DNA of 64,000 nt, from assembly GCA_020348885.1 (NCBI GenBank), contig CP070755.1:1630689-1694688 (forward strand), written 5' to 3'. Shown here in pieces: positions 10,701 to 48,701 of this stretch; the first letter of the stretch is position 1; each line of letters begins with the position of its first letter. The notes beneath the pieces are model-generated. The model saw nothing but the letters and a program-made list of their open reading frames with translations, did no database searches and was not told the origin of the DNA. The position numbers were made by a program, and so were the translations under genes. This DNA is from Candidatus Coatesbacteria bacterium. Its GTDB lineage: Bacteria; RBG-13-66-14; B26-G2; WVWN01; G020348885.

Positions 10701-10776
10701 GCGTGTTAATGCATCCATGCCATACCGTGCTGCTTTAAAAAAAAGGGTTTTTTTTTAGTTTGAGGGCAATTTTCTA

Positions 10777-10805
10777 TTGACTTTTTGATAGCGTTATCGG
10801 ATAAT
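10777..10805 (+). promoter_or_regulatory. Near-consensus sigma70 promoter TTGACT-17-GATAAT, preceded by an A/T-rich UP-like tract
   Basis: ttgactttttgatagcgttatcggataat, read directly. Predicts a ~130-nt 5' leader before the RHH gene. Confidence 0.55.
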
Positions 10806-10940
10806 GGACCAAAATTGTCAGGGTTTGGCCGGGCTTCGTCCCGAACGCCAACCAAATCTTCTGACTTTCGAAGCCCCGCTAGCTAACCGGCTAAGCGGAA
10901 TAACCTGTTTCAAAAACCTAACCTAAAAAGGAGTGAAGAA

Positions 10941-11168
10941 ATGAAGAAAGCGAGAGCGGGAAGAACTAAGTCCGTTACGGTACGGTTAGACATCGAGATC
11001 AATGACCGCCTGGACGATTATTGCGCCGACACGAGGTTCTCGAAATCCTTGCTCGTGAACAGCGCCCTCGACTACTTCACTGGTTTGCCGGACGAACGCA
11101 AATTCGAAGTAATCAAGGACTACGTAATCGTCGCGAAGAAAGCCGCGCCGAAAGCCCCCGCCAGCTAA
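10941..11168 (+). CDS. Ribbon-helix-helix (CopG/Arc/MetJ-like) small DNA-binding protein
   Basis: 75 aa. The beta-strand then two helices (KSVTVRLDIEINDRLDDYCADTRFSKSLLVNSALDYF) fit RHH. AGGAG RBS. Followed by a strong terminator. Confidence 0.55.
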   Translation: MKKARAGRTKSVTVRLDIEINDRLDDYCADTRFSKSLLVNSALDYFTGLPDERKFEVIKDYVIVAKKAAPKAPAS

Positions 11169-11207
11169 CGAGCGGTTGCCAAAGCGCTATACGACGGAAT
11201 ATAAAGG

Positions 11208-11237
11208 GCCGGCAACGGCGAGTTGCCGGCTTTTTTT
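11208..11237 (+). terminator. Rho-independent terminator
   Basis: gccggcaacggcgagttgccggc hairpin plus ttttttt. Confidence 0.8.
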
Positions 11238-11314
11238 CGCGTTTTTACTCCGAATCACGAAATGGACGCGCTCTCCCACGGAATACGTTTACCGGGCAAA
11301 TAAATAGATATTAC

Positions 11315-11342
11315 TTGACATCACGATACCCTTATGATAAAT
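11315..11342 (+). promoter_or_regulatory. Sigma70 promoter TTGACA-16-ATAAAT immediately upstream of the tRNA
   Basis: ttgacatcacgatacccttatgataaat. The tRNA 5' end lies ~7 nt downstream. Confidence 0.5.
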
Positions 11343-11348
11343 AAGACG

Positions 11349-11422
<74 letters not shown>

Positions 11423-11557
11423 ATAGTTGCCGGGGCCGCTTCGACGGCCCTTTTTTAAATACGTTTAACCGGCGCATTACTTCGCGGTTTATACTCATAA
11501 TACGCGAGAATAATAGGTTTAATCCATCCCGCCCGGTACAATTAGGTCCGGGTTACG

Positions 11558-13555
11558 ATGATGTATACGGGTAGTTTCGGAAAAAGACTAACGATAGGAT
11601 TTGCGGCTGGTACCCTCGCCGGTTTACTCGATTTCGCGGCGGCTTTCGCGGCGGGGCCGAATTTCGCGATATTCGAGCACTACCGGCTCCTATCGCTTCT
11701 CGCGTTAATTTCGACTCTACCCTTCGTAATCGTCGGTGTCGCGGCGGGCTTATTTTACCATTTCATCCGACTACTTCCCTTATTTAACCGGAGAACGTTT
11801 TTTCCAAGTACTTATACAACTGTCCTCGCGTTAGGCTTTACGTTCTTCGTATACGCGAGGTACATTTGGGTATTTAAGATATATCTCGTCGGGGCTCACC
11901 CGGTTTTTACTTACGTCAATTTAGCCGTAATGGTTGCGTTATTATTCCCCCTTACTTGGGCCCTCTACAGCGTTCTAATCCGTATAACAACATACTTGAA
12001 AAGGATTAAAATAACGCCGAAAATCGCCACCGGCGCGGTCTTCCTGTTGTTATTGACATTCCCCACCGTTGCCGTCGTATACTCGTCGGTAGAAGAACTA
12101 ACGCGGCCGTCGGAACAGCCGTTTATCTGCATCATTCTGGTGGACACCCTCCGGGTTGACCATTGTTCCTGCTACGGTTACGAGCGCGAAACGACGCCTT
12201 ACCTAGACGGGCTTGCCGGAAACGGAACGATATTCGAGAATTGTATCTCCCAGGCCCCGTGGACTAAACCGTCGGTGGCGACGTTATTTACCGGATTACC
12301 GTCAATTACCCATAAAACAGTAAGGATTTTCGATTCAATTCCCGGAGAATCCTACACGATGGCCGAAAGACTTAACGATGCGGGTTACGTAACGGTCGCC
12401 AATTCTTCTAATTTTCAAGTAACCCCCGATTTCAATTTCCAGCAGGGATTCGACTTCTTTATAACGGACCAAGAACACGTATTTCTTTCGGAGTATCTCG
12501 GTTGTATCGGAGCGAAAACGTTCGACCGGGCCTACGAATTCTATCTAAATGTTAAGCATAGGCAAACGTGGAAATGCCTGCCCATGAAAGAAATCGCCAG
12601 AAACCAGACGGAACAAGTACTATTAACGGTTTCGTTGCTTAACCGACGGCCGACTTTCATATATATACATTATATGGAACCGCACGTACCCTATATGCCC
12701 TCCGGGCGTTTCGGCGGAGTGTTCGGTCCGCCGGTTGACGACCCACGGTTTTTTCCCGACGCTTGTAACGTCGAATACACATTCTTAACGGATCCGGAAT
12801 CGCGTTACGACATTACGGAATCCCAAAAGGAGGAACTCGTACGCCGGTACGACTGCGAAATACGACAAAACGACGACGCGATAAGCCCCTGGGTCAACAT
12901 AATGGACCGTAAGAACCGGTGGGACGATTCGCTGCTAATATTCGTCGCCGACCACGGCGAAGAGTTTATGGACCACGGTTTTTTATACCACAACCGGGCC
13001 CTTTACCAGGAATCTATCCACGTTCCGCTTATTATATGGGATAGTCGGGTGAGTAAACAACCTAGTCGGGTAAGTCCTAACGTAATGGTCGCCGATATTA
13101 TGCCGACGGTACTCGATTGGGCCGCGACCGCGGTACCGTCGGAGAACCAGGATTTCTACGGCATCAGTTTATTACCTTCGTTAAACGGACAGGACGTCCC
13201 CGAAGGAAGGCGAATCATCGCCGAAATAGACTGGGACGTTTACGCGACAAGAGAATCCAAAACACCGGAAAGAAAGCCTGACGGTTATATAGTCTCCGAA
13301 AGCATCATAATAGATAACTATAAATTAATTCGAGACCATAACCGGAATAAGGTCTTAATATATGACTTAGCATCCGACCCCAATGAAGTCGAACCACTAA
13401 GCGGGTCAAACGGTAAAGCCGAATCCTTATCGTCCTTGGAAGACACCTTAAACGAAACGTTATCGTACTGGGAAAGAAAGGCGTTAACGAGCGAAGCGGT
13501 TAAAGTAGATGAAGAAACGTGGAACAAGATGAGAGACCTAGGTTATGTGAAATAA
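11558..13555 (+). CDS. Membrane-anchored sulfatase-family (alkaline phosphatase superfamily) protein, probably a phospho-transferase or hydrolase acting on envelope substrates
   Basis: ~190 aa of N-terminal TM helices, then a sulfatase-like domain (ICIILVDTLRVDHCSCYGYERETTPYLDGLAGNGTIFENCISQAPWTKPS…ADHGEEFMDHG). Confidence 0.65.
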   Translation: MMYTGSFGKRLTIGFAAGTLAGLLDFAAAFAAGPNFAIFEHYRLLSLLALISTLPFVIVGVAAGLFYHFIRLLPLFNRRTFFPSTYTTVLALGFTFFVYARYIWVFKIYLVGAHPVFTYVNLAVMVALLFPLTWALYSVLIRITTYLKRIKITPKIATGAVFLLLLTFPTVAVVYSSVEELTRPSEQPFICIILVDTLRVDHCSCYGYERETTPYLDGLAGNGTIFENCISQAPWTKPSVATLFTGLPSITHKTVRIFDSIPGESYTMAERLNDAGYVTVANSSNFQVTPDFNFQQGFDFFITDQEHVFLSEYLGCIGAKTFDRAYEFYLNVKHRQTWKCLPMKEIARNQTEQVLLTVSLLNRRPTFIYIHYMEPHVPYMPSGRFGGVFGPPVDDPRFFPDACNVEYTFLTDPESRYDITESQKEELVRRYDCEIRQNDDAISPWVNIMDRKNRWDDSLLIFVADHGEEFMDHGFLYHNRALYQESIHVPLIIWDSRVSKQPSRVSPNVMVADIMPTVLDWAATAVPSENQDFYGISLLPSLNGQDVPEGRRIIAEIDWDVYATRESKTPERKPDGYIVSESIIIDNYKLIRDHNRNKVLIYDLASDPNEVEPLSGSNGKAESLSSLEDTLNETLSYWERKALTSEAVKVDEETWNKMRDLGYVK

Positions 13556-13601
13556 CCAGCGTACGCACTAGAGAAGTTTCGACATCTTACTTCAAACCCT
13601 G

Positions 13602-15179
13602 TTAATCCGTACGGACTTCTCGTTTTTCGAAAACTGGTATCTCCTCGCCGAATAAACGTTTACCCATATCGGCATACTCTAAACTATCGACGTCCGATAA
13701 TCGGTCTACTATAACGCTAAAATATCGCGAGTCCTCCCTTACGAAATACGAATGGTAGTGGTCGAAGCTTCTATGTACAACCGCTACGGTCACAAACCCG
13801 TAATCTACCATATAGTGTTTGATAATACTTATTTCCGTATCGTCGGGGCTAAACTTCCCCGGCGAATCTAAAATCATTATAAGATCCGGATTGACGGATA
13901 TAAGGAACTCCGTCGATAGGCCGTTGTGCGCTATTTCCTCCGAGTTCAATCCCAACATATCTATAGTCTTCCAACCGGAGTAGTAAGGTAACGCCCCGGA
14001 TTCGCTAGTGAACATGGTTCCCGGGATGCCGGCCAGTTCCTTACCCATCGCAACACGATCGTACTGGGTTACATTCTCTTTTGCGAATAATACAGACGGC
14101 GTGAATCGTAAAGTCCATCCGGCGAATACAAGTACTAATATCAATGATACCCACCAGCGAGCGATAAACAACCGTTTATATTCCAGTTTCGCGAAGTAAT
14201 AAACGACGGCGTATAACGTAGCAGGGTAAACAGGGAATATAAACCGCCAGAAAAAACCTTGAATCGGGTTTATAAAAAACAAGTACAACCCGAAGAAGAT
14301 AGCACCTAATACTACCGGCAATATGTATATTATCCTTTTTTTATCGAAATATTTACCGGCTAAAAACGATATTATCAAAAAGTAGGGCGATAAATACCTA
14401 GTCAAAAATACCTTTACGTCGTTTACGCCCCACGGGCTTATTTTACCGGCGGTCCCGGCGAATTTTATATAGAAAGTATTCGGGAAGAAGTACCCGAAAT
14501 AACTTATCCGCCAGACCATATAAATAAGCCCGAACATAACGAAAACCGGGCAGGGTAAGAGGAAACCGCGTAAAAGTTTCCAGTTCTTATCGGCAGTAAG
14601 ATACGCCGTTAAACCTACGAAAATACCGAAGCTAAACACTAAAGTGTCGGGTCTAGTAAGCCCTCCGATGAAAGCGACGACCCACCAAAACCAACAATAC
14701 GACATCCTCGCCGGCCCGCCAGCTATTTCAAAACTTAACCTCGCAAGAACATAGAGAATGAAGGCCGTAAAAACGGTTTCGGTACCCTGTATTGTAAGAA
14801 ACGCGAACGGCGGGCTCAACGCTATCGACCCCGCGAAAATAAAAGCGAGACCCCAATTCATTTTCTTCGTAACGCGGGCGATATCCCAAATAATTAAAAG
14901 CACCGCGAGTACGGAGACCGTTTTTGAGAACAATACCGGGTTCAGGCCCAACAAAATCGCGAATGCGTTCAGTACGACCCAAGCGAAGCTGGTATAACCT
15001 TCCACCGGGTCCTCGCCAACGTTCCATACGACCCCGTGGCCGTGGGCAAGGTTTTGAGCGTACCGGTAGATAATATACGCGTCATCTAGTACGAAATCGT
15101 AACACAAGAACAACAAGAACCCGAAGGCCAAGGTACAAATCGTCCCGATAACGACGGTTTTTCGGTCGGGAGCTTTCAT
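13602..15179 (-). CDS. Large polytopic membrane protein, GT-C-like (ArnT/PMT-type) glycosyltransferase candidate
   Basis: 525 aa with more than 10 predicted TM helices. The N-terminal motif DDAYIIYRYAQNLAHGHGVVWN resembles GT-C arabinosyl/mannosyltransferase families, from memory. Confidence 0.4.
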   Translation of the reverse strand: MKAPDRKTVVIGTICTLAFGFLLFLCYDFVLDDAYIIYRYAQNLAHGHGVVWNVGEDPVEGYTSFAWVVLNAFAILLGLNPVLFSKTVSVLAVLLIIWDIARVTKKMNWGLAFIFAGSIALSPPFAFLTIQGTETVFTAFILYVLARLSFEIAGGPARMSYCWFWWVVAFIGGLTRPDTLVFSFGIFVGLTAYLTADKNWKLLRGFLLPCPVFVMFGLIYMVWRISYFGYFFPNTFYIKFAGTAGKISPWGVNDVKVFLTRYLSPYFLIISFLAGKYFDKKRIIYILPVVLGAIFFGLYLFFINPIQGFFWRFIFPVYPATLYAVVYYFAKLEYKRLFIARWWVSLILVLVFAGWTLRFTPSVLFAKENVTQYDRVAMGKELAGIPGTMFTSESGALPYYSGWKTIDMLGLNSEEIAHNGLSTEFLISVNPDLIMILDSPGKFSPDDTEISIIKHYMVDYGFVTVAVVHRSFDHYHSYFVREDSRYFSVIVDRLSDVDSLEYADMGKRLFGEEIPVFEKREVRTD

Positions 15180-15517
15180 ATCCAGGTACTAGATTCTTTG
15201 CGGTCCAGCAAAGCCTCTTCTAACGAAGGAGTTTCGACTGGTACGTACGCTCAACTTACGGTATTCTAATCTCGCCGTCGCCGCATTTCAACGACAAACG
15301 GCCACCGTACGGTCGAAGTAAAACGGCGGCGGATTCGAGAATCCGGGACATCCGCCTTGCCCGGAGGCTAATACTATGTTATACGACTATACTCATATAC
15401 CTATGAAACCGCTAAAAAAAGCCGTAGAAATTGCCGACGCACTGTGCCGTAGCGAGCGACCGAGCCGTTCTTTACGTTATTAAACGGTACTCTTAGTTTA
15501 GTACACCCGGCGCTAAC

Positions 15518-17548
15518 ATGGCGTTTATATTCTCCAACACCGTCTTGGCCCTGTTTTCCGCGGTCGCGTTTTACGCGACGGGCCGCGTTCTCGCGACGGT
15601 CTTCGGCTTCCGGGCCCAAAACGTATCGGAAAAGTTCGCAGTTTATATCCCGTTCGGGATGGCTGCGTACGCCCTAGCTTTCACGGTCTTCGGCTTCGCG
15701 CATCTTTATCACCCGACAACGGCATACGTTGCCCTGATCGCCGGATGCGCTTTCATCGGATATAAACCCCGAGGGCTAATCGAAGAATTATACTCGGCTT
15801 TCCTTTCCGTCGTCAAGGGGTTAACGGCTTATAAAGAACCTGAAAAAGCGTTTTCGGTCGCAATCTTTACCCTCCTAACGGTTTTCTTTACCTTGGCGGC
15901 CCTGAGTCCCGAAATTTGGAAATGGGACGTTTTAACGTACCATCTTACGTTACCGGCCCGTTATATAACGAACGGCGGTATTTATTTTATCCCCGATATC
16001 CGCGCATCCTCTTTCCCCCAGTACCAGGAACAGACCAACCTTTTCGGGATGTTGCTATATTCTGACCGCCTGTCACGTTTCTTCGTTTTAACGACGTGGG
16101 TTTCTTTAGCCGCGATGACCTACGCCGGGGCAAAACGCTTTTTCGGGGGCCGTTCGGCGAACTTCGCCGCGTTGACGTTTATCGTCTGCCCTTTTACCCT
16201 CGGTTTTTTACCGGTCAGCGTAAACGATTTATGGTGGGCTTCCTTCTTCTGCCTATCGGTTTTCTTCGCGTATAGATGGGCCGTCAACGGGGGATTCGGT
16301 AATATACTGGCGGCGTCTTTTCTCGCGGGAATCGCGATGGGAAGTAAAATCCTCCACGTATTCCTTCTCGTATATTATTTTGCTTTTTTAATATACGCCC
16401 TTAATAAAAGACGCACAGAAACTCTTAAAATTATCGGGAGTTTCGCCGCCTTTTTATCCGTGAGTATTATTATCGCTTCGCCGTGGTTCGTAAGGAATTA
16501 TATACATACGGGAGACTTATTGGGGTTCGTCAACAACGATTACGAGAACGTCGCTCATTGGCGCGGTGAGGATTATCCCGGCGGATTATTAGGCAAGCTC
16601 CTCTGGTTCATATCGCTTCCGACGTTCAACGGCCCCGAGGTTAACGCCTTTACTTGGCCGTTATTGTACTTATATGTTCTGTTCGGCCGCTTCAGTTGGC
16701 GCCAGTGCTACGGGCTCGGGCTATTGTTATATCCCGGCATGCTGCTATCCTTTTTCTCCGGTAAGGATACCCGCAAGCGAACGATCGCCTTCACTTTGGT
16801 AATCCTACTATATCTCCTCATTTGGGTTTTCCTGTTTAAGGCCACCAACCCGCGATACCTTTTACCCATAGTCCCCATTATGGCCATCCTAAGCGGTTAC
16901 GGGTACTCCAAGTTTATTACGTCGAACCGTAGTCTATTGAAAGGTGTCGGGATCTTCGTGTTCGTTGTCTCGTTAGCCTTGACCGCCGTTGGAACAAAAG
17001 GGGTAATCGAGGACAGGATCGAATGGGTACTCGTCGGCGTAAACCCCGGATACCATAAACAGTACTTACTGGACGTGATGTTCGGAGGAGAAGACTTACC
17101 CGGGGCGATCGACGAACTACCGACCGAATCGAAAATCTTCAGCACCGATTCATTCGTCTATTACTTACCGGATAACGTATTCGTCGCCGACAGCAGGAAC
17201 ACGTTCTTTTTCGATTACAACGAAGCATCAAACCCCGTCGGATTATACACGCTTATCCGCGCCGAAGGCTATACGCACGTTTTAAGCGACCCGGAAAAAT
17301 CCGACTTCTACTTCCCGGGTAATCGGTTCGGCGGCGACCCCCGACGCTACCAATATCACTTTACCAGGGATTTTCTAGCTGAATACGCCGCACCTACCGG
17401 CGGTGCCGACGGCGACGGTAAATTCGGGAATAGGCGGCTTTATCGGCTGAAAGAAGAGAATGAGTTGACCTCGATCCCGCGAAAAGAAACTAGCGTCAGC
17501 GAATTAACTAAAGAAGCCCGGGAAGCTTTTGTAACGAAGACCGACTAA
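15518..17548 (+). CDS. Large polytopic membrane protein, GT-C fold (PMT_2/ArnT-like) glycosyltransferase candidate
   Basis: 676 aa with more than 12 TM helices and a C-terminal soluble domain. Divergently transcribed from the previous GT-C-like gene. Confidence 0.4.
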   Translation: MAFIFSNTVLALFSAVAFYATGRVLATVFGFRAQNVSEKFAVYIPFGMAAYALAFTVFGFAHLYHPTTAYVALIAGCAFIGYKPRGLIEELYSAFLSVVKGLTAYKEPEKAFSVAIFTLLTVFFTLAALSPEIWKWDVLTYHLTLPARYITNGGIYFIPDIRASSFPQYQEQTNLFGMLLYSDRLSRFFVLTTWVSLAAMTYAGAKRFFGGRSANFAALTFIVCPFTLGFLPVSVNDLWWASFFCLSVFFAYRWAVNGGFGNILAASFLAGIAMGSKILHVFLLVYYFAFLIYALNKRRTETLKIIGSFAAFLSVSIIIASPWFVRNYIHTGDLLGFVNNDYENVAHWRGEDYPGGLLGKLLWFISLPTFNGPEVNAFTWPLLYLYVLFGRFSWRQCYGLGLLLYPGMLLSFFSGKDTRKRTIAFTLVILLYLLIWVFLFKATNPRYLLPIVPIMAILSGYGYSKFITSNRSLLKGVGIFVFVVSLALTAVGTKGVIEDRIEWVLVGVNPGYHKQYLLDVMFGGEDLPGAIDELPTESKIFSTDSFVYYLPDNVFVADSRNTFFFDYNEASNPVGLYTLIRAEGYTHVLSDPEKSDFYFPGNRFGGDPRRYQYHFTRDFLAEYAAPTGGADGDGKFGNRRLYRLKEENELTSIPRKETSVSELTKEAREAFVTKTD

Positions 17549-24335: not shown

Positions 24336-26273
24336 ATGTCTATAATCCCGATTCTCGCCGTAATAGTCCAATTCGCGCCGCTGGTGGGTTTCGCCGTCGC
24401 CCTCTTCTGGGGCAAACGGATGGGCGAGCCGCGAGCCAGCTTTGTTCCCGTCGCGATGATGGGCGTAAGCGCCCTCGCGAGCATCCCGTTATTGGCCGGC
24501 GTCCTGTCCGGCCACGGCGGGCTCTTTACCGTCGAGTGGATAAACTCCGGTGCGATAAGTATAAACATCGGCTATATGCTGGACAACTACAGCGCCGTAA
24601 TGACGGCAACCGTCGCGATCGTCGCGTTCCTCATCCATCTCTACTCGATAGGCTACATGCATGGTGACCCGAGGTTCGGCCGGTTCTTCGCGTACCTGAA
24701 CCTCTTCGCGTTCTCGATGCTGGGGCTGGTGACGGCTTCGAACTTTATGCAACTCTTTATCTTCTGGGAGTTGGTCGGCCTCTGCTCGTACCTTCTTATC
24801 GGCTTCTGGTACGAGAAGAAATCGGCGTCCGACGCCGGCATCAAAGCCTTCATCACCACGCGAACCGGCGACGTCGGGTTTATGCTCGGGATATTCCTCC
24901 TCTTCGCTCTGACCGGCTCGATGGACTACGACAAGATATTCCACGCCGTCGAGGGTGGCGCCATCGGCCCGACGTTGATTACGGCGGCGGCGCTCCTCCT
25001 CTTCTGCGGCGCGATAGGGAAATCGGCCCAGATACCGCTGCAGGTGTGGCTCCCGGACGCGATGGAAGGCCCGACTCCCGTCAGCGCCCTCATCCACGCC
25101 GCGACTATGGTCTGCGCCGGCGTGTATATGATCGCACGGGTATTCCCCATCTTCGAAGCGGCGCCTACGGCGCTCTTCGTCGTCGCCATCGTCGGCGGGA
25201 CCACAGCGCTCCTCGCCGCGACCATAGCGTTGGTACAGATTGACATCAAGCGGGTGCTGGCGTACTCGACGGTCAGCCAACTTGGGTATATGATACTGGC
25301 CCTTGGGGTCGGCAACCCGGTGGCGGCCTTTTTCCACCTGGTTACCCACGCGTTCTTCAAGTCGCTCCTATTTCTCGGGTCCGGCTCGATGATACACGGG
25401 ACAGGCACCCAAGACATCCGGGAGATGGGCGGTCTGGCACCCAAGATGAAGACGACGACGTGGACGTTCGTTGTCGGGGCGCTGGCGCTGGCAGGCGTAC
25501 CGCCTTTGGCCGGTTTCTTCTCCAAGGACGAAATCTTGGGCTCCGTCAGCGACTACGGCCACTGGTGGCTAATAGTCTGCGGCTTTCTGACGGCTCTCTT
25601 GACGGCCTTCTACATGTTTCGGGCTATATATATCTCCTACGCCGGGAAACCGCGGACGGCGGGCGCCGAGCACGCACACGAGTCACCGCCGGTTATGACG
25701 ATACCGCTGATCGTCCTCGCCGTATTCTCGGTCACGGCCGGGTGGATATTCTTCGTCCCCGGCGGCTTCGGCGCGTTCTCGGGCTTGAGCGTTTTCCTTC
25801 ACCACGAGCACGGGATTAACGTGGGGGCGATGGGCGCGTCGGTAATTCTGGCCCTCTCAGGTATCTTCATCGCGACGATAATCTACCTCTGGAAGTGGGT
25901 GGACAACGAGCAGCTCTACAAGATATTTCGGCCCGTCGCTTTCGTGCTCGAACGCAAGTACTTCTTTGACGACGTTTACCACGGTTTGCTCGTCCCCGGG
26001 TTCGTCCTCTTCAGCCGCTTCTGGGGCGCGTTCGACCTGTGGGTAATAGACGGCATCGTCAATCTGTCGGCTTTCATGACGGTCCTGGTCAGCCGCTTCG
26101 AAGGTTGGTTCGACCTGGCAATAGTGGACGGGGTTGTTAACCTACTCGGCTGGATTACCAGAACGTTCGGCGCCGGGTTCCGTAAACTTCAGACTGGGTA
26201 CGTACAGGAGTACATAATCATCCTGGGCGTCGGCGCCGTCGCCGTGATACTGGCGGCACTTGCGATATTGTAA
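24336..26273 (+). CDS. nuoL: NADH-quinone oxidoreductase subunit L
   Basis: 645 aa with antiporter-like subunit motifs (…WLPDAMEGPTPVSALIHAATMV…). Confidence 0.92.
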   Translation: MSIIPILAVIVQFAPLVGFAVALFWGKRMGEPRASFVPVAMMGVSALASIPLLAGVLSGHGGLFTVEWINSGAISINIGYMLDNYSAVMTATVAIVAFLIHLYSIGYMHGDPRFGRFFAYLNLFAFSMLGLVTASNFMQLFIFWELVGLCSYLLIGFWYEKKSASDAGIKAFITTRTGDVGFMLGIFLLFALTGSMDYDKIFHAVEGGAIGPTLITAAALLLFCGAIGKSAQIPLQVWLPDAMEGPTPVSALIHAATMVCAGVYMIARVFPIFEAAPTALFVVAIVGGTTALLAATIALVQIDIKRVLAYSTVSQLGYMILALGVGNPVAAFFHLVTHAFFKSLLFLGSGSMIHGTGTQDIREMGGLAPKMKTTTWTFVVGALALAGVPPLAGFFSKDEILGSVSDYGHWWLIVCGFLTALLTAFYMFRAIYISYAGKPRTAGAEHAHESPPVMTIPLIVLAVFSVTAGWIFFVPGGFGAFSGLSVFLHHEHGINVGAMGASVILALSGIFIATIIYLWKWVDNEQLYKIFRPVAFVLERKYFFDDVYHGLLVPGFVLFSRFWGAFDLWVIDGIVNLSAFMTVLVSRFEGWFDLAIVDGVVNLLGWITRTFGAGFRKLQTGYVQEYIIILGVGAVAVILAALAIL

Positions 26274-26304
26274 GTAAAGCCGTTAAAATAGGAGGTTGGT
26301 TACA

Positions 26305-27906
26305 ATGAAAACGCGATTAGTTTTAATCTTTTCGATAGCTTTATTAGCGCTTTCCGGCGTTTTCATAGGTTGTGACAACAACGTTACGGGGCCTGACGAC
26401 GGCGATGGGGATGGTAACGGCGACGGGGACGAAGAAAAACCGGAATTATCGAACCCGAATCCACCAGACGGCGCAACGGGCGTAGATTTCCTTTTGGATT
26501 CCGTAAGTTGGGAATGTACGAACCCCACCGGTGCCAACCTTACGTTCGACGTCTACTTCGGCGAATCGGGTTCGCCCCTAGACTTAATAGCTAACGATAT
26601 ACCTGATACAAAATGCCCAATAGGACCGCTAGAAGAGAAAACCGGTTATCAATGGCAAGTTACCGTAGATTACGGAGAAGGTCTAACCGAATGGGGTCCC
26701 GAATGGGAGTTCGAAACAGCAGAGTCACCTGGTTGGCATATAGAAATAGTCGATTATATCGGTGAGTTTTATCCTTTCTACGACATTTCACTTACTATAG
26801 ATAGCGGAGATAATCTGTATATGAGTTATTATTCTATGGGAGACCATGGTTTAAAATACGCATACACGAGTGGGCGAGGTTGGACGACCGAAATCGTCGA
26901 TACGGATGGTTATATGCCCGGTCAAGGTTCTTCTATTGAACTAGATATTAACGGCGACCCGCATATAAGCTATGTAACCGCCCTGGATCTATCCGGACAA
27001 GAAATCAGGTGCGCCCGTAAAACGGGGCTAACGTGGTCAATTGATAATATCGCAAGCGGCTATTTATGGGGTACTTCCCTCGTTTTAGACGGTTCGTCTA
27101 ACGAACATATTACATATTACGAAGAGGGAGGTGGGAATCCTAGAATATTTTACACTTACAAAAGCGGTTCCGGGTGGATTAGAAAAGAGGTATATGCAGG
27201 TATCTCCCACAACTCGCGTAAATCGATAGGGTTTAATAAGGACGGTAAACCCGTTATTTGTTTCAACCCCTTTAATGACATAGACTACGACTTAAGGTTT
27301 GCTACTTGGAACGGTTCAAGTTGGGATATCGAAGTGATAGATAGCGGTACTTATCATATATCCTGGCAAGCCGAGATGGTCATCGACGCCCAAAAGAACC
27401 CTCATATCGTATATAACGACGGTTTAAGTTATCCCGAACATCTGATGAAGTACGCGCGTAGAAATGGGTCTTCGTGGATAATAGAAAATATAGAAGTAGA
27501 TAGGTGGGAAGCTAGGCCTTGGGTTTGCGATTTATACCTCGATGGTACTGGCAAACCACATATAACCTATACAACCCGCGAATACGTTTCAGGTAATTAC
27601 CGATACGAATTAAAATACGGTTATTTCGACGGCACGTCTTGGTCCAATGAACTAGTCGAAGAAGCGGAAGTAGGTTCGAATAGATTAGTATTGGACGCTC
27701 AAGGATACCCCCATATCTTATATTTCGATGAAAACACTTATGAGTTGAAACACGCTTATTACATACCGGAAAGCCGTTTTGATACGTCGGCGCTGCGAAT
27801 AAAAGCCGTACCTCATACGAAACAAAAAGACGATAAAACGAAAGCGAAATTAAAAGAAGGGGAACGGAAGAAAGGTAAAGATTTAGCGTCGGGTATCGTC
27901 GAATAA
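26305..27906 (+). CDS. Lipoprotein with an N-terminal FN3-like domain and a ~9-10-unit tandem-repeat (beta-propeller-like) region, inserted between nuoL and nuoM
   Basis: Lipobox LSGVFIGC, GGAGG RBS. Repeats of ~45 aa share the pattern [DN]G.PHI.Y…LKYA…G.SW..E.V. Confidence 0.6.
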   Translation: MKTRLVLIFSIALLALSGVFIGCDNNVTGPDDGDGDGNGDGDEEKPELSNPNPPDGATGVDFLLDSVSWECTNPTGANLTFDVYFGESGSPLDLIANDIPDTKCPIGPLEEKTGYQWQVTVDYGEGLTEWGPEWEFETAESPGWHIEIVDYIGEFYPFYDISLTIDSGDNLYMSYYSMGDHGLKYAYTSGRGWTTEIVDTDGYMPGQGSSIELDINGDPHISYVTALDLSGQEIRCARKTGLTWSIDNIASGYLWGTSLVLDGSSNEHITYYEEGGGNPRIFYTYKSGSGWIRKEVYAGISHNSRKSIGFNKDGKPVICFNPFNDIDYDLRFATWNGSSWDIEVIDSGTYHISWQAEMVIDAQKNPHIVYNDGLSYPEHLMKYARRNGSSWIIENIEVDRWEARPWVCDLYLDGTGKPHITYTTREYVSGNYRYELKYGYFDGTSWSNELVEEAEVGSNRLVLDAQGYPHILYFDENTYELKHAYYIPESRFDTSALRIKAVPHTKQKDDKTKAKLKEGERKKGKDLASGIVE

Positions 27907-27980
27907 ACGTATTACCGCCGGAGGGTCACCCGGGCAGCGTTAACGTTAGTTTTAACCTGACGGACGATCAGTATCAATAC

Positions 27981-28577
27981 ATGAAAGAAGCCTCATATAT
28001 CATCGTTATCTCGGCGGTTTGTTGGGCCTTATCGGCGACAGCTTATACCAACGACGCCGTCATCTCGCCGAACCCGGCGGCCCGGGCCTACTTCTGGGAG
28101 GGCATCGACGCGCTGGCCGATGGCGACGAGATTGGCGCGAAAGACCGGTTCGAGCTTGCAGTCGGCGCAGACGAAAAATGTGTACTCGCGTACGCGCTCC
28201 TCAGCCAACTCGCGTACGCCGCGGGCGACGAAGAGCTGTCCCGCGAGTACTACGACAGGATGTCGGAAGAACCGCCGGAGCTGGAGGTACTATACGCGTG
28301 GGCCGTCGAACCGACGGCGGAAGGCGATTGGGACGAGGCGGCGGCCCGGGCCCGCGAATTCGTCGAACAGTACCCGCAGACTCTCCGGGCTATCGCGATA
28401 CTCCATCTTCTCGGCCGCGCCCAGTACTACATGGGCGAGCGAGACGAAGCCTGGGAGACCCTCAACTATGCCTTTATGATGAGCGACCTGGTACCCGGAA
28501 CGGTACCGGCCTACGAAAACGAAGACGAGTACGAAACCATATCGGCGTTCGTTTCGGGCGATTCGAACGTCGAATAA
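27981..28577 (+). CDS. Secreted alpha-helical (TPR-like) hypothetical protein
   Basis: Signal peptide. Acidic, helical repeats (…LAYAAGDEELSREYYDRM…). Confidence 0.45.
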   Translation: MKEASYIIVISAVCWALSATAYTNDAVISPNPAARAYFWEGIDALADGDEIGAKDRFELAVGADEKCVLAYALLSQLAYAAGDEELSREYYDRMSEEPPELEVLYAWAVEPTAEGDWDEAAARAREFVEQYPQTLRAIAILHLLGRAQYYMGERDEAWETLNYAFMMSDLVPGTVPAYENEDEYETISAFVSGDSNVE

Positions 28578-43332: not shown

Positions 43333-44265
43333 CTACCTTTTATGAAGAGCTATCTCGCCGTCTTCGTCAATGTAAACCGCATAGATACTTTCTTTCGCGT
43401 CCAGCGCCAGCGCAACGGAAGTACTGGGCCTTTCCGAAATCCTCAGTTCCGTACCTTCGCTAAGCGACATATCGCTCTCGACCGTATAATACCGCATATG
43501 TATATACTGGTCATCCCGGTCCACGTACGCGGCGAGCACTTCGTCGCCGATCACCGCAAGAGCCGGTTGGGCCGCCAACCGATCTTCGGTAGGGTATTCC
43601 TTAACATAAGTTAACTTTGTATCCTTGACCGACCCTTTGATCTCGTACGTCGTTAAAGAAAGCTTGCCCTTCTCGTTTACCCACGCCACGACCAGGACGT
43701 TGTCCACGACGCCGATAGAACACGGGTAGTTCGTTTCGCATTCGGGCAATTCTATTATATTTTTCCTCTTCGGCCGGGATTTGCCGAGGTCGTACACCGC
43801 GACCGTAACTCTGGAATCCTTCTGGTCCACGTAACCGATATAACCCCTCGTCCCGCCTATAGCGACGCTGGCGCCGCCGGAGCTCTTTTTGCCGACCCCT
43901 TTCTTATCGACGAATTTGAAATCGCCGGCTGATTTTATTTTGTAGTAAACAAGGTCGACGTCCCCGTCGGAGTCGGCCCAGGCCATCAACAATTTATCGT
44001 CCGATATAGACAACCCGAGAGCATTCGCCGTGCGGTCGCTAAGGCTTTCAGACTCGTCGAGCCACAGATCACCGCTCCCCTTCAGCTCGAAAAGGCCGAA
44101 CTTTAACGTCAGGTCGGGCCGGGCCCACGCGATATAAACATCGCCGTCGCAAACGGCTACTGCAGGGGTGCCGGGGCTTTCCTCGTTACTTTCGTACGTC
44201 ATAGCCGCGAAAGCGGCACCCGTAAACGTTGAAAGAACGGTAAGTATAAGACTTATACCGCGCAT
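43333..44265 (-). CDS. Secreted hypothetical protein with repeated beta-strand motifs (possible beta-propeller)
   Basis: Start trimmed to the Met MRGISLILTV, which has a GGAGG RBS. Repeats such as LLMAWADSDGDVDLVYY, VLVVAWVNEKGKLSLTTYE, VLAAYVDRDDQYIHMRYY. Confidence 0.5.
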   Translation of the reverse strand: MRGISLILTVLSTFTGAAFAAMTYESNEESPGTPAVAVCDGDVYIAWARPDLTLKFGLFELKGSGDLWLDESESLSDRTANALGLSISDDKLLMAWADSDGDVDLVYYKIKSAGDFKFVDKKGVGKKSSGGASVAIGGTRGYIGYVDQKDSRVTVAVYDLGKSRPKRKNIIELPECETNYPCSIGVVDNVLVVAWVNEKGKLSLTTYEIKGSVKDTKLTYVKEYPTEDRLAAQPALAVIGDEVLAAYVDRDDQYIHMRYYTVESDMSLSEGTELRISERPSTSVALALDAKESIYAVYIDEDGEIALHKR

Positions 44266-44396
44266 CGCTTTTCGCCTCCCAAAAAGGTTGTCAACTACGG
44301 GATAATAAGATAGATATAAAGCCGTGTCAAGGCCGACGGCCGAGAAGCCCGTCTTTAAAGCGCCGAGCCCGCAGACCGGGGAAACCCAACAAACGT

Positions 44397-44627
44397 CTAA
44401 AACGAAACCGTGCCTATCCCCGGACCAAAAGCGCAAGAACACCCGCAGCAGCTTAAAACCGCGTTGACGATACCGAGCGCTAAACAAACCTGGCCGAAGG
44501 ATTTACAAGCCCTTTCCGGTTTACTCATATATATTATACCGAGTATTATCCCGAGAATCGGTATAAAAAAGGAAAGGATATAGAACAACCATTCCGGGCC
44601 GGGCGGTTTATCTCCCCGTTCGTTCAT
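44397..44627 (-). CDS. Small membrane protein, paralogue array member 1 of 6
   Basis: PPGPEWLFYILSFFIPILGIILGIIYMSKPERACKSFGQVCL: shares the PEP.WLFY.LSF..P..GI..G.IY..K…FGK.CL core. Confidence 0.6.
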   Translation of the reverse strand: MNERGDKPPGPEWLFYILSFFIPILGIILGIIYMSKPERACKSFGQVCLALGIVNAVLSCCGCSCAFGPGIGTVSF

Positions 44628-44656
44628 CGAAATTCGACCTCCAAACGCCGGTTATG

Positions 44657-44908
44657 CTAATAGCCCGTAGATATTGGTATCGCGAATAACGTAAGGCCCA
44701 CGGCCAGATATATAATCACGACAGCCATTATGAATACGACGGTGATTGCAAACCGGGCGACAACCGTAAACAGGCATACCTTACCGAAATCCCTGCAAAC
44801 CTCCGTCTGCTTACCCAGGAATATCGCGCCGATAACTATACCGGCCACCGGTTCGATAAACGACAGCACGTAAAACAACCAGGCCGGTTCCGGCGGTCTA
44901 TATTCCAT
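44657..44908 (-). CDS. Small membrane protein, paralogue array member 2 of 6
   Basis: MEYRPPEPAWLFYVLSFIEPVAGIVIGAIFLGKQTEVCRDFGKVCL…. Confidence 0.6.
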   Translation of the reverse strand: MEYRPPEPAWLFYVLSFIEPVAGIVIGAIFLGKQTEVCRDFGKVCLFTVVARFAITVVFIMAVVIIYLAVGLTLFAIPISTGY

Positions 44909-44921
44909 AACTACCCCTTTA

Positions 44922-45257
44922 TTAAAGCGTAGCTATACATACCCCCGTGATCGCCGACTCTATGGAAGAAATCACGGCCAATAAAAACACCATTATAATC
45001 AAGTAATAAACGATACAGACCAATATTACCAATATCACTATTAATACGTATAGGACCCACACGATGATTACGGCCAATATAAAGAGTAATAACAGGGCTA
45101 TCGGTATCGCTGCGAAGATGAGACACGTTTTCCCGAACCGCTTTAGCCCTTCGTCGGCTTTAGCCAGATAAATAACGCCGATAACTATCCCGGCGACCGG
45201 GACGGCAAAACTCAGGACGTAAAACAACCACGCCGGTTCCGGGGGTCTTTCTTCCAC
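44922..45257 (-). CDS. Small membrane protein, paralogue array member 3 of 6
   Basis: MEERPPEPAWLFYVLSFAVPVAGIVIGVIYLAKADEGLKRFGKTCL…, with a very hydrophobic I/L/V-rich C-terminal tail. Confidence 0.6.
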   Translation of the reverse strand: MEERPPEPAWLFYVLSFAVPVAGIVIGVIYLAKADEGLKRFGKTCLIFAAIPIALLLLFILAVIIVWVLYVLIVILVILVCIVYYLIIMVFLLAVISSIESAITGVCIATL

Positions 45258-45267
45258 AACCCCTCCT

Positions 45268-45654
45268 TTATAATATAGCCGGTAGTAATAACGACCCGAC
45301 TACCGACGCCGCGGGCGAAACCGCGGTCGCCAACGCCGTTATTATTATCAACAGGATAACGAGAAAGTAGAACGCGAAAGCCATAAAAATAACCAAGACG
45401 TACACGATGATTACGACCAATATATAAAGCAGGAACAACACAATCGGTATCGCAGCGATGATTAGACAAGTCTTGCCGAACGTCTTCAGTTCTTCGTCGG
45501 TCTTCGTAAGGTAGATAACACCTATCACTATCCCGGCGATGGGGACAATAAAACTAAGGATGTAGAACAACCATGCGGGTTCCGGAACTTGCTCGACGAT
45601 ACCGCCATTTGCCCTCGTTTCCTTAATGGACGTCGCCTTAACGGTTTTTCCCAT
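45268..45654 (-). CDS. Small membrane protein, paralogue array member 4 of 6
   Basis: …VPEPAWLFYILSFIVPIAGIVIGVIYLTKTDEELKTFGKTCL…. Confidence 0.6.
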   Translation of the reverse strand: MGKTVKATSIKETRANGGIVEQVPEPAWLFYILSFIVPIAGIVIGVIYLTKTDEELKTFGKTCLIIAAIPIVLFLLYILVVIIVYVLVIFMAFAFYFLVILLIIITALATAVSPAASVVGSLLLPAIL

Positions 45655-45677
45655 AGTCGTATCCTCGCAAAACGCGG

Positions 45678-46025
45678 TTACGCGATGCCGGCCAGCGCGC
45701 CGATAAACGCGTACTCGCCGCCGCTAAGCCCCGCGAACGCTATAACCCCTATCATTAATACGACGTAGAAGACGAAGTATGCGACGGCAAACAGGATGTA
45801 GATGTAGATGCATAGGCAATATAAAAGGATAGGGATTATGGCCGCGATTAAGCAGTTTTTCCCGAACCGCCGGCATTCCTCGTTTGGTTTACCCATATAA
45901 ATCGCGCCGATAACTATCCCGGCTATCTGTACGAAAAACGAAAGTACGTAGAACAGCCACTCGGGTTCGGGCGGCATTTCCGTCGTCGCGTTCGTCTTGC
46001 GTACAGGGCTTCTATCTTCCGTCAT
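45678..46025 (-). CDS. Small membrane protein, paralogue array member 5 of 6
   Basis: …MPPEPEWLFYVLSFFVQIAGIVIGAIYMGKPNEECRRFGKNCL…. Confidence 0.6.
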   Translation of the reverse strand: MTEDRSPVRKTNATTEMPPEPEWLFYVLSFFVQIAGIVIGAIYMGKPNEECRRFGKNCLIAAIIPILLYCLCIYIYILFAVAYFVFYVVLMIGVIAFAGLSGGEYAFIGALAGIA

Positions 46026-46125
46026 TACATCCTCACAGTCTAGCCGCCGTGCTTTTAGGGCGGAACTCCCGCGGGTAACCCGGTCGAATTACCCACGAAC
46101 GGGAATCCACACGTATTCGAAACGG

Positions 46126-46353
46126 TTATCCGAAAAATTCGCCGGCTCCGCCCCAGAGGAACAACCCGGCCCAGATTAACGAACCGGCGCAGACCAGTAC
46201 CAAAGCTACTATAGCCAACCAGATACAAATTTTACCCGATCGGCGGTAATCCGCTTCGGCGTTGGTCTGGGCCACGACGCCGAAAACAAGGCCGAAAAAC
46301 GGGAACAAGAATGAACCGACGTAACATAGATAACGGTGCTTAGGGGGCGCCAT
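46126..46353 (-). CDS. Small membrane protein, divergent paralogue array member 6 of 6
   Basis: MAPPKHRYLCYVGSFLFPFFGLVFGVVAQTNAEADYRRSGKICIWL keeps the Y..SF..P..G...G helix and a GK.C motif. Confidence 0.45.
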   Translation of the reverse strand: MAPPKHRYLCYVGSFLFPFFGLVFGVVAQTNAEADYRRSGKICIWLAIVALVLVCAGSLIWAGLFLWGGAGEFFG

Positions 46354-46423: not shown

Positions 46424-46906
46424 CTATTTTCGTTTCTTACGGTCGGCCAACGGCAAGTAATACTCCACGAAATCGATAACGTCGTCCCTGTTCTCTTTCG
46501 CAAACCGCAGGTTCATCCCACGGAACGAATCGAGCCGCGACGCGTACGTGAAGGTCGAAAGCATTACGCCCATCTTGTCCGCGTAGTAAGACCGGAAGTA
46601 ATCCCAACCTCGCCTGCGTTTCGCGAACAAGACCCTAACCTCCGCCCCCGAACCGTCCAACCGGTAGTACGACGGGAAGAAGTGGTTATATAAAGATAGA
46701 ACCAATATCGCGGCTCCTAATACGCCGACGAACCAATAACCGGCGGCGACGCCGACCAAAACACCGGAAAGTAGGACTAGTATAACGGCGAAGATCGAAC
46801 GGACCGGATATGCCAGAAGCGGATAGACTGACCACTCGAGCGAACGCGGAGCGCCCGAAGCCGCCGCTTCGCTTCCCTTTTCCTCATCCGTTTCAAACGA
46901 ACTCAA
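46424..46906 (-). CDS. Membrane protein with two N-terminal TM helices and a ~90-aa C-terminal soluble domain (bPH_2/YdbS-like architecture)
   Basis: Hydrophobic segment AVILVLLSGVLVGVAAGYWFVGVLGAAILVLSLY, then a soluble tail. Overlaps the upstream gene by 14 nt. Confidence 0.4.
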   Translation of the reverse strand: MSSFETDEEKGSEAAASGAPRSLEWSVYPLLAYPVRSIFAVILVLLSGVLVGVAAGYWFVGVLGAAILVLSLYNHFFPSYYRLDGSGAEVRVLFAKRRRGWDYFRSYYADKMGVMLSTFTYASRLDSFRGMNLRFAKENRDDVIDFVEYYLPLADRKKRK

Positions 46907-48701
46907 AACCCTCGACCTCGGACGTTTTCACGTCAATAACCTCGCCGTCGACATCGACGCCGAAAGATGTTTCACTTTTACCCCGTACCTTCCCGGGTAC
47001 ACCCTCGACAGTTTCGCCGCCGGATAGGTAGAAACGCACCGGGCGGCCGTTTTCGGAAGCGAACGCGACGGCGGAACGGAGCATCTCAGCCGTCGGCACC
47101 GCCGACGAACGTGGTACAGGTACGTCCGGCGCAGTATCGCCCCGGAAAAGCCGCGCCCTGTTACCCTTTCTCGGTTCTCGCCAAGCGTCCAAGGTAGCGG
47201 GTAAAAAGCCGGCCTCGATTAATCTTCCGTAAATCGTTTCGTAGTCGGACGCTGGTATCCTGAAACCGCATAGGTCCACCGGCTTCCCCAACTCGCCGGT
47301 TAACTCGGTTACTTTCGCTATCTCCTCCAACCGCGTTGCGTCCTTGGCCGCCAGAAACGTACCTTCGACGAAACCCACTTCACCGTAGCGTTCGGCCCAA
47401 TCGTCCAACGAGAACACCAGGTTCTGAGGCAGTTCCTTCGCCGACCTGTCCGCCAGAAACCGTTTAATCTCGTCCGCTGGCAGGCCGTCGTCGAGCGCCC
47501 GGTAAAAGGATTCTCTGCCGATTACGTACGTCAGGTAATGGCCCGAAGACCTCAAGTCGGCGAACGCCTCAAGCTTCAAACGCTCGTCCTGACCGATATC
47601 GGCCGGTACCTGTACCTCGAAGTTGCCTCCCACGTGGAAAACGTTACTGTCGGTCGGCTCGTTCCGCGATACCCCGTCTTCGATATCCGAAACCCTGCTA
47701 AGAACCAAATCGCCGTTTACGAAACCGGCTTCCAATATCCCGACGACGAACAGCGCGCACGCGACCCGCCCGGCCGTTTCCGCACCCGTTTCGCCGTTGG
47801 CTCGCCGGGCAACCCGTACCAGATACGAATAGCGAAACCATTCGCCTTTTGGGTGTTTCCTTAACGCGAAAACGGCGGCCGCCGCGGCTCCACCAGCCCC
47901 GGTCGGTACGTTAGATAATAACGTTATCGACAATCCCGGGAACCCCGATAACACATCAGCCAGATAATCCGGGTTTCCGGTCAGTTCCCCTCCTCTTCGA
48001 ACTACGGCTAGTCGAACTAAAGCGTAATTTACTAGCATATCCAACCTGCTGGCGCCGAACGTCGCGAACACGTCGTAAAGCGGCGGTTCTTCCTCGTCCA
48101 CCGACATAAGCGGCATTATACGTCCGAGCGAACGCCTCGATACCAAACCCGTTTTCGTAAGAGGTATCGGCCGTTTAAGGGTCTCGGCCCACAGCGTAGT
48201 AAGGTCGACGACAGCCGAAGCGGACGAGAGGTTAATCGGCGTATCCGGCGCCTTGACCGACGGTAGTTTATACGAACGGGCCAGCCCGGCGGCGAGCGTT
48301 TCCATGAGTTCCAACGGGACCCTCGGTCGGCCGAGAGTCGTGTCCTTCACTGCAAGCCCGCGGGAAGCCAGCGTCTCGCCGTAAAGCCCTCCCGCTGCTT
48401 TATCGAAATACGCTTTGCCTACGATATCCGCCGTCATCTCGAGGGTGATGAGCGCCAGGAGTTTATACCTGTCGGCGCGGCCTATCCCGTCTATCAGAAC
48501 GTCGAAAGGAGCTAGGGCCAGCGCGGACGGGATTTCTTCGAGTAAACGCGCCCGGGACGCGAAAGAGCTATCGAGACCTAGATGGTCGGCTATGGCTTTC
48601 AACCGGGCAAGGTCCATCGCCTGCAGCGATTGCGCCAATTCTACCTTTTCCGGCGTTTCGGGCATAGACTCCATACTACCATCGCGACGACAACCGCGCA
48701 A
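46893..48701 (-). CDS. Large soluble hypothetical protein (602 aa), first gene of the minus-strand operon
   Basis: Long ORF with coding-like composition and no recognisable catalytic motif. Confidence 0.5.
   Translation of the reverse strand: MRGCRRDGSMESMPETPEKVELAQSLQAMDLARLKAIADHLGLDSSFASRARLLEEIPSALALAPFDVLIDGIGRADRYKLLALITLEMTADIVGKAYFDKAAGGLYGETLASRGLAVKDTTLGRPRVPLELMETLAAGLARSYKLPSVKAPDTPINLSSASAVVDLTTLWAETLKRPIPLTKTGLVSRRSLGRIMPLMSVDEEEPPLYDVFATFGASRLDMLVNYALVRLAVVRRGGELTGNPDYLADVLSGFPGLSITLLSNVPTGAGGAAAAAVFALRKHPKGEWFRYSYLVRVARRANGETGAETAGRVACALFVVGILEAGFVNGDLVLSRVSDIEDGVSRNEPTDSNVFHVGGNFEVQVPADIGQDERLKLEAFADLRSSGHYLTYVIGRESFYRALDDGLPADEIKRFLADRSAKELPQNLVFSLDDWAERYGEVGFVEGTFLAAKDATRLEEIAKVTELTGELGKPVDLCGFRIPASDYETIYGRLIEAGFLPATLDAWREPRKGNRARLFRGDTAPDVPVPRSSAVPTAEMLRSAVAFASENGRPVRFYLSGGETVEGVPGKVRGKSETSFGVDVDGEVIDVKTSEVEGFEFV

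Follow-up and report, generated by a model that had tools for sequence, protein, structure and literature searches.

The 64,000-nucleotide (nt) stretch of DNA analyzed here (hereafter, the window) comes from a genome assigned to "Candidatus Coatesbacteria" (contig CP070755.1, positions 1,630,689 to 1,694,688) and carries, at positions 44397 to 46353, an array of six consecutive open reading frames (ORFs) on the minus strand that encode small membrane proteins with a common core. These genes are referred to below as c1 to c6, with c6 being the first gene of the array and c1 the last; the gaps between them, counted from c1 to c6, are 29, 13, 10, 23, and 100 nt. The c6 gene (46126..46353) encodes a 75-amino-acid (aa) two-helix hairpin that is the most divergent member of the set (PPKHRYLCY...SGKIC). 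The c5 protein (115 aa; 45678..46025) combines a 16-residue polar N-terminal extension and the hairpin core with an uncharged hydrophobic tail of ∼58 residues, and the c4 protein (128 aa; 45268..45654) has a 20-residue N-terminal extension and an uncharged hydrophobic tail of ∼66 residues. The c3 gene (44922..45257) starts with GTG and encodes a 111-aa protein that is a lineage-specific additional copy, probably a chimera of c2 and c4 (see below). The 83-aa c2 protein (44657..44908) carries an SFIEP variant of the core and an Arg residue within its tail, and the 76-aa c1 protein (44397..44627) ends in a short Cys-rich tail, LSCCGCSCAFGPG.

In the alignment, the shared core reads PEPxWLFYxLSF..P.AGIVIG.IY..K..(C)..FGK.CL and includes nine invariant columns (P, L, Y, S, F, G, G, G, and C). 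Core identity to c5 is 53 to 66% for c1 to c4 and 34% for c6. In the latter, as noted in an earlier interpretation of these letters alone (here, the sequence-only reading), the Cys residue is retained, whereas PEP.W and FGK are gone. The family hidden Markov model (HMM) matches all six copies, with E values from 1e-26 (c6) to 3e-35, and two of the products, c2 and c6, are identical to the database proteins P0005 (JSW52_08180) and P0012 (JSW52_08200), respectively. A purine-rich run resembling a Shine-Dalgarno sequence precedes all six starts (AGGAG, located 5 nt before the ATG, in c6; AAGGAGG in c3). The coordinates, alignments, Shine-Dalgarno-like sites, and substitution ratios all bear out the proposal that the six ORFs are paralogous genes with a shared core, and they confirm that a real family of paralogs coding for small membrane proteins exists at this locus. 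The likeness among the copies greatly exceeds what chance could produce. In the nucleotide sequence, the array genes form families of direct repeats. Because these repeats are just 61 to 77% identical, the copies must be old rather than recent paralogs, and recent gene conversion among them is ruled out. Two overlapping minus-strand ORFs in alternative frames, 44911-45126 and 45212-45469, were rejected as by-products of the similarity between c3 and c4; the frame conserved in the orthologs is that of the hairpin.

Orthologous arrays were compared in two related metagenomic genomes, designated L011 (the closer one) and L001-L003, the latter obtained from the JGI samples 3300057026 and 3300057053. 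In both L011 and L001, the array consists of five genes in the order c6, c5, c4, c2, c1, with c3 missing, which shows that these five types are stable groups of orthologs whose order is kept in related genomes. A neighbor-joining tree clusters the array genes by type; orthology across lineages is weak. The ratios of nonsynonymous to synonymous substitution rates (dN/dS), calculated by the Nei-Gojobori method, are 0.04 to 0.13 for the core in comparison with L011 and 0.02 to 0.08 in comparison with L001 where dS is unsaturated. The respective values are 0.11 to 0.31 and 0.05 to 0.40 for the hydrophobic tails, and 0.5 to 0.85 and 0.13 to 0.79 for the polar N-terminal extensions of c4 and c5. The c6 orthologs are the first genes of the array in both L011 and L001 (dN/dS 0.13). 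Those of c5 comprise 123 aa in L011 and 127 aa in L001 and have conserved tails (dN/dS 0.06 in the core and 0.11 in the tail), those of c4 comprise ∼127 and 132 aa, respectively (0.04 in the core, 0.31 in the tail, and 0.51 in the N-terminal extension), and those of c2 comprise 83 aa in both (0.07 in the core and 0.22 in the tail). The c1 orthologs, 76 aa in both genomes, are 87% (L011) and 80% (L001) identical to the window protein (dN/dS 0.10). Since the ratios are low, all of the frames appear to be translated and constrained, the long c4 and c5 tails among them; as far as substitution patterns can show it, the array genes are translated and evolve under purifying selection.

These comparisons bear directly on the view, expressed in the sequence-only reading, that the family is locally expanding and diversifying and that its C-terminal tails are hypervariable, having diverged completely. 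The tails are indeed unlike between most paralogs, yet those of c3 and c4 are homologous to each other, and each tail is conserved inside its own group of orthologs. Further, the small array proteins share 53 to 80% aa identity with their L001 orthologs, which falls within the range of the flanking genes (59 to 83%), so the tails cannot be called hypervariable. They differ among the paralogs because the paralogs are old. The dN/dS analysis along the alignment, which had been suggested as a check, did reveal the expected conserved core, but the tails proved to be constrained, not diversifying. What stands of the proposal is that copy number varies: a comparison of synteny, likewise suggested, uncovered six genes here versus five in L011 and L001, and gene turnover is also seen in a second lineage.

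The additional gene, c3, has a composite appearance. Its first 26 codons are 78 to 81% identical in nucleotide sequence to c2 and its L011 ortholog, 69% identical to the L001 one, and 70 to 76% identical to the c4 genes; its N terminus, EERPPEPAWLFYVLSF, is that of the L011 c2 ortholog, the c4 extension is missing, and the ribosome-binding region is c2-like. The remainder of the gene is 59 to 72% identical to the c4 genes, compared with 41% to c2. Judging from this mosaic of similarities, c3 is probably chimeric, with a 5′ end derived from a c2-type gene and the rest from a c4-type gene. It would most simply have arisen when chromatids misaligned and c2 and c4 underwent unequal crossing-over, which would produce the arrangement c4-(c2/c4 hybrid)-c2; the evidence for the 5′ end consists of few, highly conserved codons, and the crossover event was not recent.

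Gene gain and loss are also evident in lineage 2 (loci L004 to L006, L010, L013, L014, L016, and L021/L022), where an array of four or five copies follows a MurJ/Polysacc_synt gene. The flanking genes of these loci are 75 to 87% identical (∼85% for the flippase), and the arrays contain types 1,2,3,4, types 1,2,3,D,4, or types 1,3,D,4. Four recognizable types are kept in order in L004, L013, and L016; L021 lacks type 2 and contains a divergent type. The L010 array, the start of which runs off the contig, ends with a partial type 2 gene and genes 3 and 3′, after which come a degenerate copy and, last, a DUF4190 gene. The degenerate copy (positions 955-1164 of L010, plus strand) is a 69-aa remnant, in which the hairpin core is followed by unrelated sequence, and it occupies the place of type 4 in L004, L013, and L016. 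The bona fide DUF4190 gene comes after it (1397-1699, plus strand), so that this locus offers a snapshot of decay and replacement. In a third context (L018 to L020), three members of the family are interleaved with genes for DUF4190 and zinc-ribbon membrane proteins. The Neobacillus/Bacillus genomes carry a single 73-aa family gene that is always followed by an adjoining gene for a DUF2085 membrane protein (L007, 8001-8921; L008, 6998-7942; L009, 1289-2233); L007 also has a complete cluster of Tad/Flp pilus genes ∼1 kb further downstream, on the opposite strand, and L008 lacks such a cluster. The content of the lineage 2 arrays thus differs although their flippases are ∼85% identical. Across all these loci, the pattern is one of birth-and-death evolution under purifying selection.

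Members of the family are found far outside these arrays. A profile search of genome contigs with the six-copy core alignment yielded 5 loci, and a word-indexed search with the core profile (A2) yielded 92 proteins of 65 to 92 aa (best E value, 8e-24). When a profile of 66 sequences was used for an exhaustive HMMER search, it returned 1049 representatives of 50%-identity clusters at E ≤ 1e-3, including 209 at E ≤ 1e-10. Nearly all of these clusters are metagenomic, and wherever a name is given, it is "hypothetical protein," except for one member labeled as an RNA polymerase subunit M/TFIIS-type zinc ribbon. The family signature (profile A3) can be written as L-x-Y-x-x-S-F-x-x-P-x-x-G-x-x-x-G-x-x-Y-x-x-K-x5-(K/R)-x-x-G-(K/R)-x-C. 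Among 253 sequences, the column frequencies are 0.91 for L8, 0.96 for Y10, 0.96 for S13, 0.88 for F14, 0.89 for P17, 0.99 for G20, 0.97 for G24, 0.71 for Y27, 0.74 for K30, 0.95 for K/R36, 0.98 for G39, 0.88 for K/R40, and 0.94 for C42. G20 and G24 form a GxxxG motif, a classical helix-packing motif, in helix 1; the short loop contains three conserved basic residues, and helix 2 starts with the near-invariant G-K-x-C. The divergent c6 protein departs from this signature at the final Tyr and at the first Lys of the loop, both of which are missing; the L, Y, S, F, P, G, and G residues, the basic residue at position 36, and G-K-x-C are present. Helix 2 is rich in Cys: ∼40% of the members have two Cys residues in a CxC arrangement (profile positions 54 and 56), and c1 has the run LSCCGCSC at residues 59-65. 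In ∼20% of the members, the loop holds a second Cys, seven residues ahead of the invariant one. This enrichment, seen in the alignments, hints at metal binding or thiol chemistry.

Among the best 145 representatives, 73 are standalone hairpins, 59 have the hairpin at the C terminus with more than 40 extra residues before it, 6 have a C-terminal extension, and 7 have both extensions. The standalone members comprise 65 to 130 aa and are encoded as single copies or in arrays of 3 to 6 genes. The Pfam partners detected in this set are DZR (24 representatives), Zn_Ribbon_1 (21), Zn_ribbon_3 (18), SHOCT (5), SAP (4), and Pkinase (2). Thus, the hairpin domain of the array is reused modularly as a C-terminal membrane segment, and it is a widespread membrane module without a name in curated databases. 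Ser/Thr protein kinases with the hairpin as their C-terminal membrane segment are encoded in L015 (3272-4429, plus strand) and are also represented by P0110 and P0112. In another group of proteins (P0142, P0148, P0149, P0175, P0190, P0201, P0210, and P0230), one or more zinc ribbons and the hairpin are followed by a conserved C-terminal domain of ∼135 residues with the pattern ...W.DV.I.L.DG...GNG...GDYF.LT...Y.PTG...F.G. Two tandem genes of L012 (3714-4205 and 4248-4730, plus strand) code for a ∼90-residue GYF-like domain (HYVRIGGKEY...W) joined to the hairpin; since L012 belongs to the same metagenome-assembled genome as L011, domain-bearing relatives and free hairpins coexist in one genome.

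The statement of the sequence-only reading that the family could not be assigned to a known one holds: in searches of the six copies and their neighbors with the Pfam, NCBIfam, PADLOC, and PHROGs models, nothing reached the cut-off except for a Helicase_C_3 domain in a neighboring 602-aa protein. Fold searches, and sequence searches of the Protein Data Bank (PDB), retrieved generic hairpins only, the matches in the PDB sequence profile search being chance ones to the PsaI and PetL helices (E ∼0.5 or above). One of the closest known domains is DUF4190 (PF13828), which is likewise a short membrane module of two helices, has a basic turn that contains Gly, and occurs on its own or after zinc ribbons. 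DUF4190 genes lie inside or next to arrays of the family in L010, L018, L019, and L020. However, its signature differs from the L-Y-SF-P-G-xxx-G...GK-C of the family, and the best-scoring copy, c6, reaches 12.4 bits (E = 0.14) against a gathering threshold of 35 bits, whereas the genuine DUF4190 neighbor in L010 scores 51.6 bits. An hhalign comparison with the neighboring DUF4190 gave a probability of 86% and a score of 36.6, with 53 to 59% and scores of 29 to 30 for reversed controls and 15 ± 3 for block shuffles. Because the reversed controls already score so high, most of this signal reflects hairpin shape and composition, and homology between the two families is no more than a possibility. 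The family HMM also matches a protein that combines zinc ribbons with DUF4190 (E = 1.5e-5 in a small database). A literature search on DUF4190 and Coatesbacteria returned nothing functional.

DUF4870, DUF5684, and DUF4064 belong to a class of promiscuous small membrane modules that are fused to zinc ribbons, GYF, and SHOCT domains. The family is mixed and matched in the same way, its partners being zinc ribbons, SHOCT, and GYF-like domains. Its matches to DUF5684, DUF4064, and DUF4870 are weak, all of them below the curated cut-offs, and its signature is its own. We conclude that the family is an undescribed variant of these familiar small, promiscuous membrane hairpin domains. The loose likeness to PLDc_N and Pmp3 suggested in the sequence-only reading did not hold up: PLDc_N (PF13396) and Pmp3 (PF01679) are also small and have a P..G...Y-like motif in a membrane helix, but neither matches any of the copies or, even at E values up to 10, the family consensus.

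AlphaFold2 models support the two-helix architecture. In the c5 model (mean predicted local distance difference test [pLDDT] score, 80), a helix at residues 22-44, kinked at residue 32, is followed by a loop (45-48) and helices at 49-100 and 104-114; in the c1 model (mean pLDDT score, 75), a helix at residues 12-34, kinked at residue 22, is followed by a loop (35-38) and a helix at 39-67. The single 52-residue hydrophobic helix 2 modeled for c5 would more plausibly fold back in the membrane as an extra segment. In 152 standalone members, the loop contains on average 3.38 Lys and Arg residues, compared with 1.83 in both flanks combined; by the positive-inside rule, this excess predicts a cytoplasmic loop and an outside location of the N terminus (N-out). 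The fusions to N-terminal kinase and zinc-ribbon domains, on the other hand, require the N terminus to be inside (N-in).

Taken together, these data lead us to favor, with moderate confidence, the interpretation of the array as a tandem family of paralogs, shaped by birth and death, whose shared element is a self-contained and probably self-associating membrane-anchor hairpin. The hairpin would be a self-contained module for membrane insertion and self-association, with helix 1 packing through its near-invariant S-F-x-x-P-x-x-G-x-x-x-G face. The array, whose genes are probably co-expressed, judging from their arrangement, would most likely supply "free anchor" subunits for the cytoplasmic membrane. 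Small homo- or hetero-oligomers could form as these subunits pack together, possibly joined by domain-bearing relatives from other loci, and the unlike hydrophobic tails, which may add zero, one, or two membrane segments, would tune this packing rather than act as variable effectors. Several points weigh against this interpretation. The case for oligomerization is built only on the GxxxG motif, the co-transcription-like gene spacing, and the modular use of the hairpin, and a fixed multi-subunit stoichiometry is disfavored by the lineage 2 arrays, which gain and lose genes, and by the Bacillaceae, which have one copy only. The charge bias of the standalone members (N-out) conflicts with the N-terminal kinase and zinc-ribbon fusions (N-in). 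Finally, the conserved polar residues and the single Cys suggest a role more specific than plain anchoring, such as binding of a ligand, lipid, or metal, or service as a modification site.

The genes around the array are shared with its closest relatives. In L011 and L001-L003, as in the window, the array lies in a neighborhood with genes for the Helicase_C_3 protein, a 160/164-aa membrane protein, and secreted proteins of 310 and 185 aa; the bactofilin, M23 peptidase, and MoxR genes are shared as well. The sequence-only reading had combined the array with these neighbors into an operon, interpreted it as a novel envelope system, and found none of the neighbors to have a recognizable function. 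The last point is mostly correct, the exception being the 602-aa protein, in which the sole recognizable part is a Helicase_C_3 (XPB N-terminal-like) domain (E = 7e-19), with no ATPase domain. The envelope system did not withstand comparison: a BLASTP search of the 602-, 160-, 310-, and 183-aa proteins and three other neighbors against all ORFs of the other loci found homologs only in L001 and L011. A conserved operon with the 602-, 160-, 310-, and 183-aa neighbors is thereby ruled out beyond close relatives; the array is an autonomous unit, and what ties it to these genes is the synteny of closely related genomes. The 602-aa gene overlaps by 14 nt the gene for the 160-aa protein, which consists of two membrane helices and a soluble domain, and this pair (46424-48701, minus strand) is conserved in L001 and L011. 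On the other side, a 384-aa ORF (43333-44487, minus strand) that overlaps c1 is most likely the gene for the 310-aa secreted protein, with its start (MRGISL) at ∼44265 (MRGISLILTVLSTFTGAAFA), which corrects the extent of what the sequence-only reading had called a secreted repeat protein. This shorter version agrees with the 310-aa gene called in L001 and has a signal peptide. A strong sigma-70-like site, TTGACA-17-TATTAT (11 of 12 positions), is located upstream of it at 44330-44302, suggesting that the 310-aa gene may have its own promoter.

The same comparisons bear on several rival explanations. The array could be the operon of an obligate hetero-oligomer in which each paralog fills a distinct slot of a fixed membrane complex, such as a ring, pore, or scaffold. 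The five groups of orthologs, whose order is kept in three genomes with neighboring genes that are 59 to 86% identical, the short intergenic gaps, the purifying selection on every copy, and the ordered set of four types in L004, L013, and L016 are all consistent with this possibility. We nevertheless consider it unlikely, as close relatives differ in content (c3 has been gained, and L021 has a divergent type and no type 2), the place that type 4 has in L004, L013, and L016 is taken in L010 by a degenerate copy plus a DUF4190 gene, Bacillaceae have a single copy, and orthology between the lineages is weak. We give somewhat less credence to another view, in which the hairpin is an undescribed widespread domain (at least ∼1000 clusters at 50% identity), its signature reflects a specific activity (e.g., binding of anionic lipids or metals, or nucleation of an oligomeric pore or filament), and the arrays are a hetero-oligomeric form that docks the zinc-ribbon, GYF, and kinase relatives. 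Variable accessory subunits, also mentioned in the sequence-only reading, are a possible role. The hairpins might be small regulatory or accessory subunits of a larger machine (a MurJ-like flippase or a P-type ATPase), in the manner of FXYD, sarcolipin, KdpF, or PfABP. In lineage 2, the array does come directly after the MurJ/Polysacc_synt gene, on the same strand and with gaps of 27 to 93 nt, and a P-type cation ATPase gene lies ∼3 kb away. That gene, however, is on the opposite strand, and the lineage 2 loci are all close relatives, so their linkage may reflect nothing more than synteny. In the fetched loci of lineages 1 and 3, the arrays adjoin neither a P-type ATPase gene nor one for a MurJ-type flippase; in the window itself, the Pfam scan covered a minority of the large ORFs. 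On this evidence, such a subunit role appears improbable.

Two other explanations have very little likelihood. In one of them, the hairpins would be VirB2/TrbC-like pilin subunits that bind lipid at the basic loop and polymerize to form a filament outside the cell or in the periplasm. Such pilins have the same shape as the family members in the AlphaFold2 models, with a short basic loop between two hydrophobic helices, and the Pfam model that best fits the family consensus is T4SS_pilin (PF18895), which represents type IV secretion system (T4SS) pilins (E = 1.3e-3; 19.2 bits versus the gathering threshold of 26.6). One member, P0077, exceeds the gathering score (28.6 bits), 24 of the 145 representatives match at E < 0.01, and an NCBIfam model of pilin-like conjugal transfer proteins gives a weak match (E = 0.005). 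Nonetheless, none of the six window copies matches PF18895 at E ≤ 1. Instead of the cleavable leader of VirB2-type pilins, they have, on inspection, 5 to 27 polar residues that run straight into helix 1, and many relatives bear cytoplasmic N-terminal domains. Genes for VirB4, VirD4, VirB6, or a relaxase were not found among the called genes of the 22 loci, and a tblastn search with the family consensus gave no match on 72,556 plasmids or in phages, a result to which the low-complexity filter may have contributed. The resemblance to T4SS_pilin is therefore one of shape, not membership, and a pilin function is hardly credible. Hardly more credible is the suggestion of the sequence-only reading that these are polymorphic membrane effectors or immunity proteins, subject to diversifying selection and forming a novel envelope system with the 602- and 160-aa proteins and the secreted neighbors. 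It could draw on the unlike tails of the tandem paralogs, the variable copy number, the lack of assigned functions among the neighbors (other than the Helicase_C_3 domain), and the synteny with these neighbors that is kept in L001 and L011. However, the tail dN/dS values are never near 1, the tails are conserved inside the groups of orthologs, and arrays of other lineages lack all four neighbors. No toxin, bacteriocin, or defense gene adjoins any of the 22 loci examined, and PADLOC and PHROGs searches with the six copies and four neighbors gave zero matches at E ≤ 0.01. The dN/dS values and synteny largely refute the effector/immunity interpretation.

If the membrane-anchor interpretation is correct, the candidate novel envelope system drops out, and a testable object takes its place: an unnamed, widespread two-helix domain with a sharp sequence signature, which is found in small free-standing proteins and also anchors zinc-ribbon, kinase, and other cytoplasmic domains in the membrane. 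Its definition as a domain would allow consistent annotation of thousands of small metagenomic proteins that are currently "hypothetical." Some carriers are in culture, for example, N. rhizophilus (P0085, locus L007), and the single-copy gene of Neobacillus/Bacillus makes the function experimentally accessible. As for the array, it provides a small and uncluttered case of birth-and-death evolution, presumably via unequal crossing-over.

Elsewhere in the window, two regions have a GC content of 0.46 to 0.49, compared with ∼0.57 in the rest. The region at 10001-16000 contains a tRNA-Met gene (11349-11422), a sulfatase gene, a 525-aa ORF without a Pfam match, and a gene for a PMT_2-like glycosyltransferase; the one at 26001-28000 contains a 536-aa ORF, also without a Pfam match. 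Both low-GC regions may represent acquired islands.

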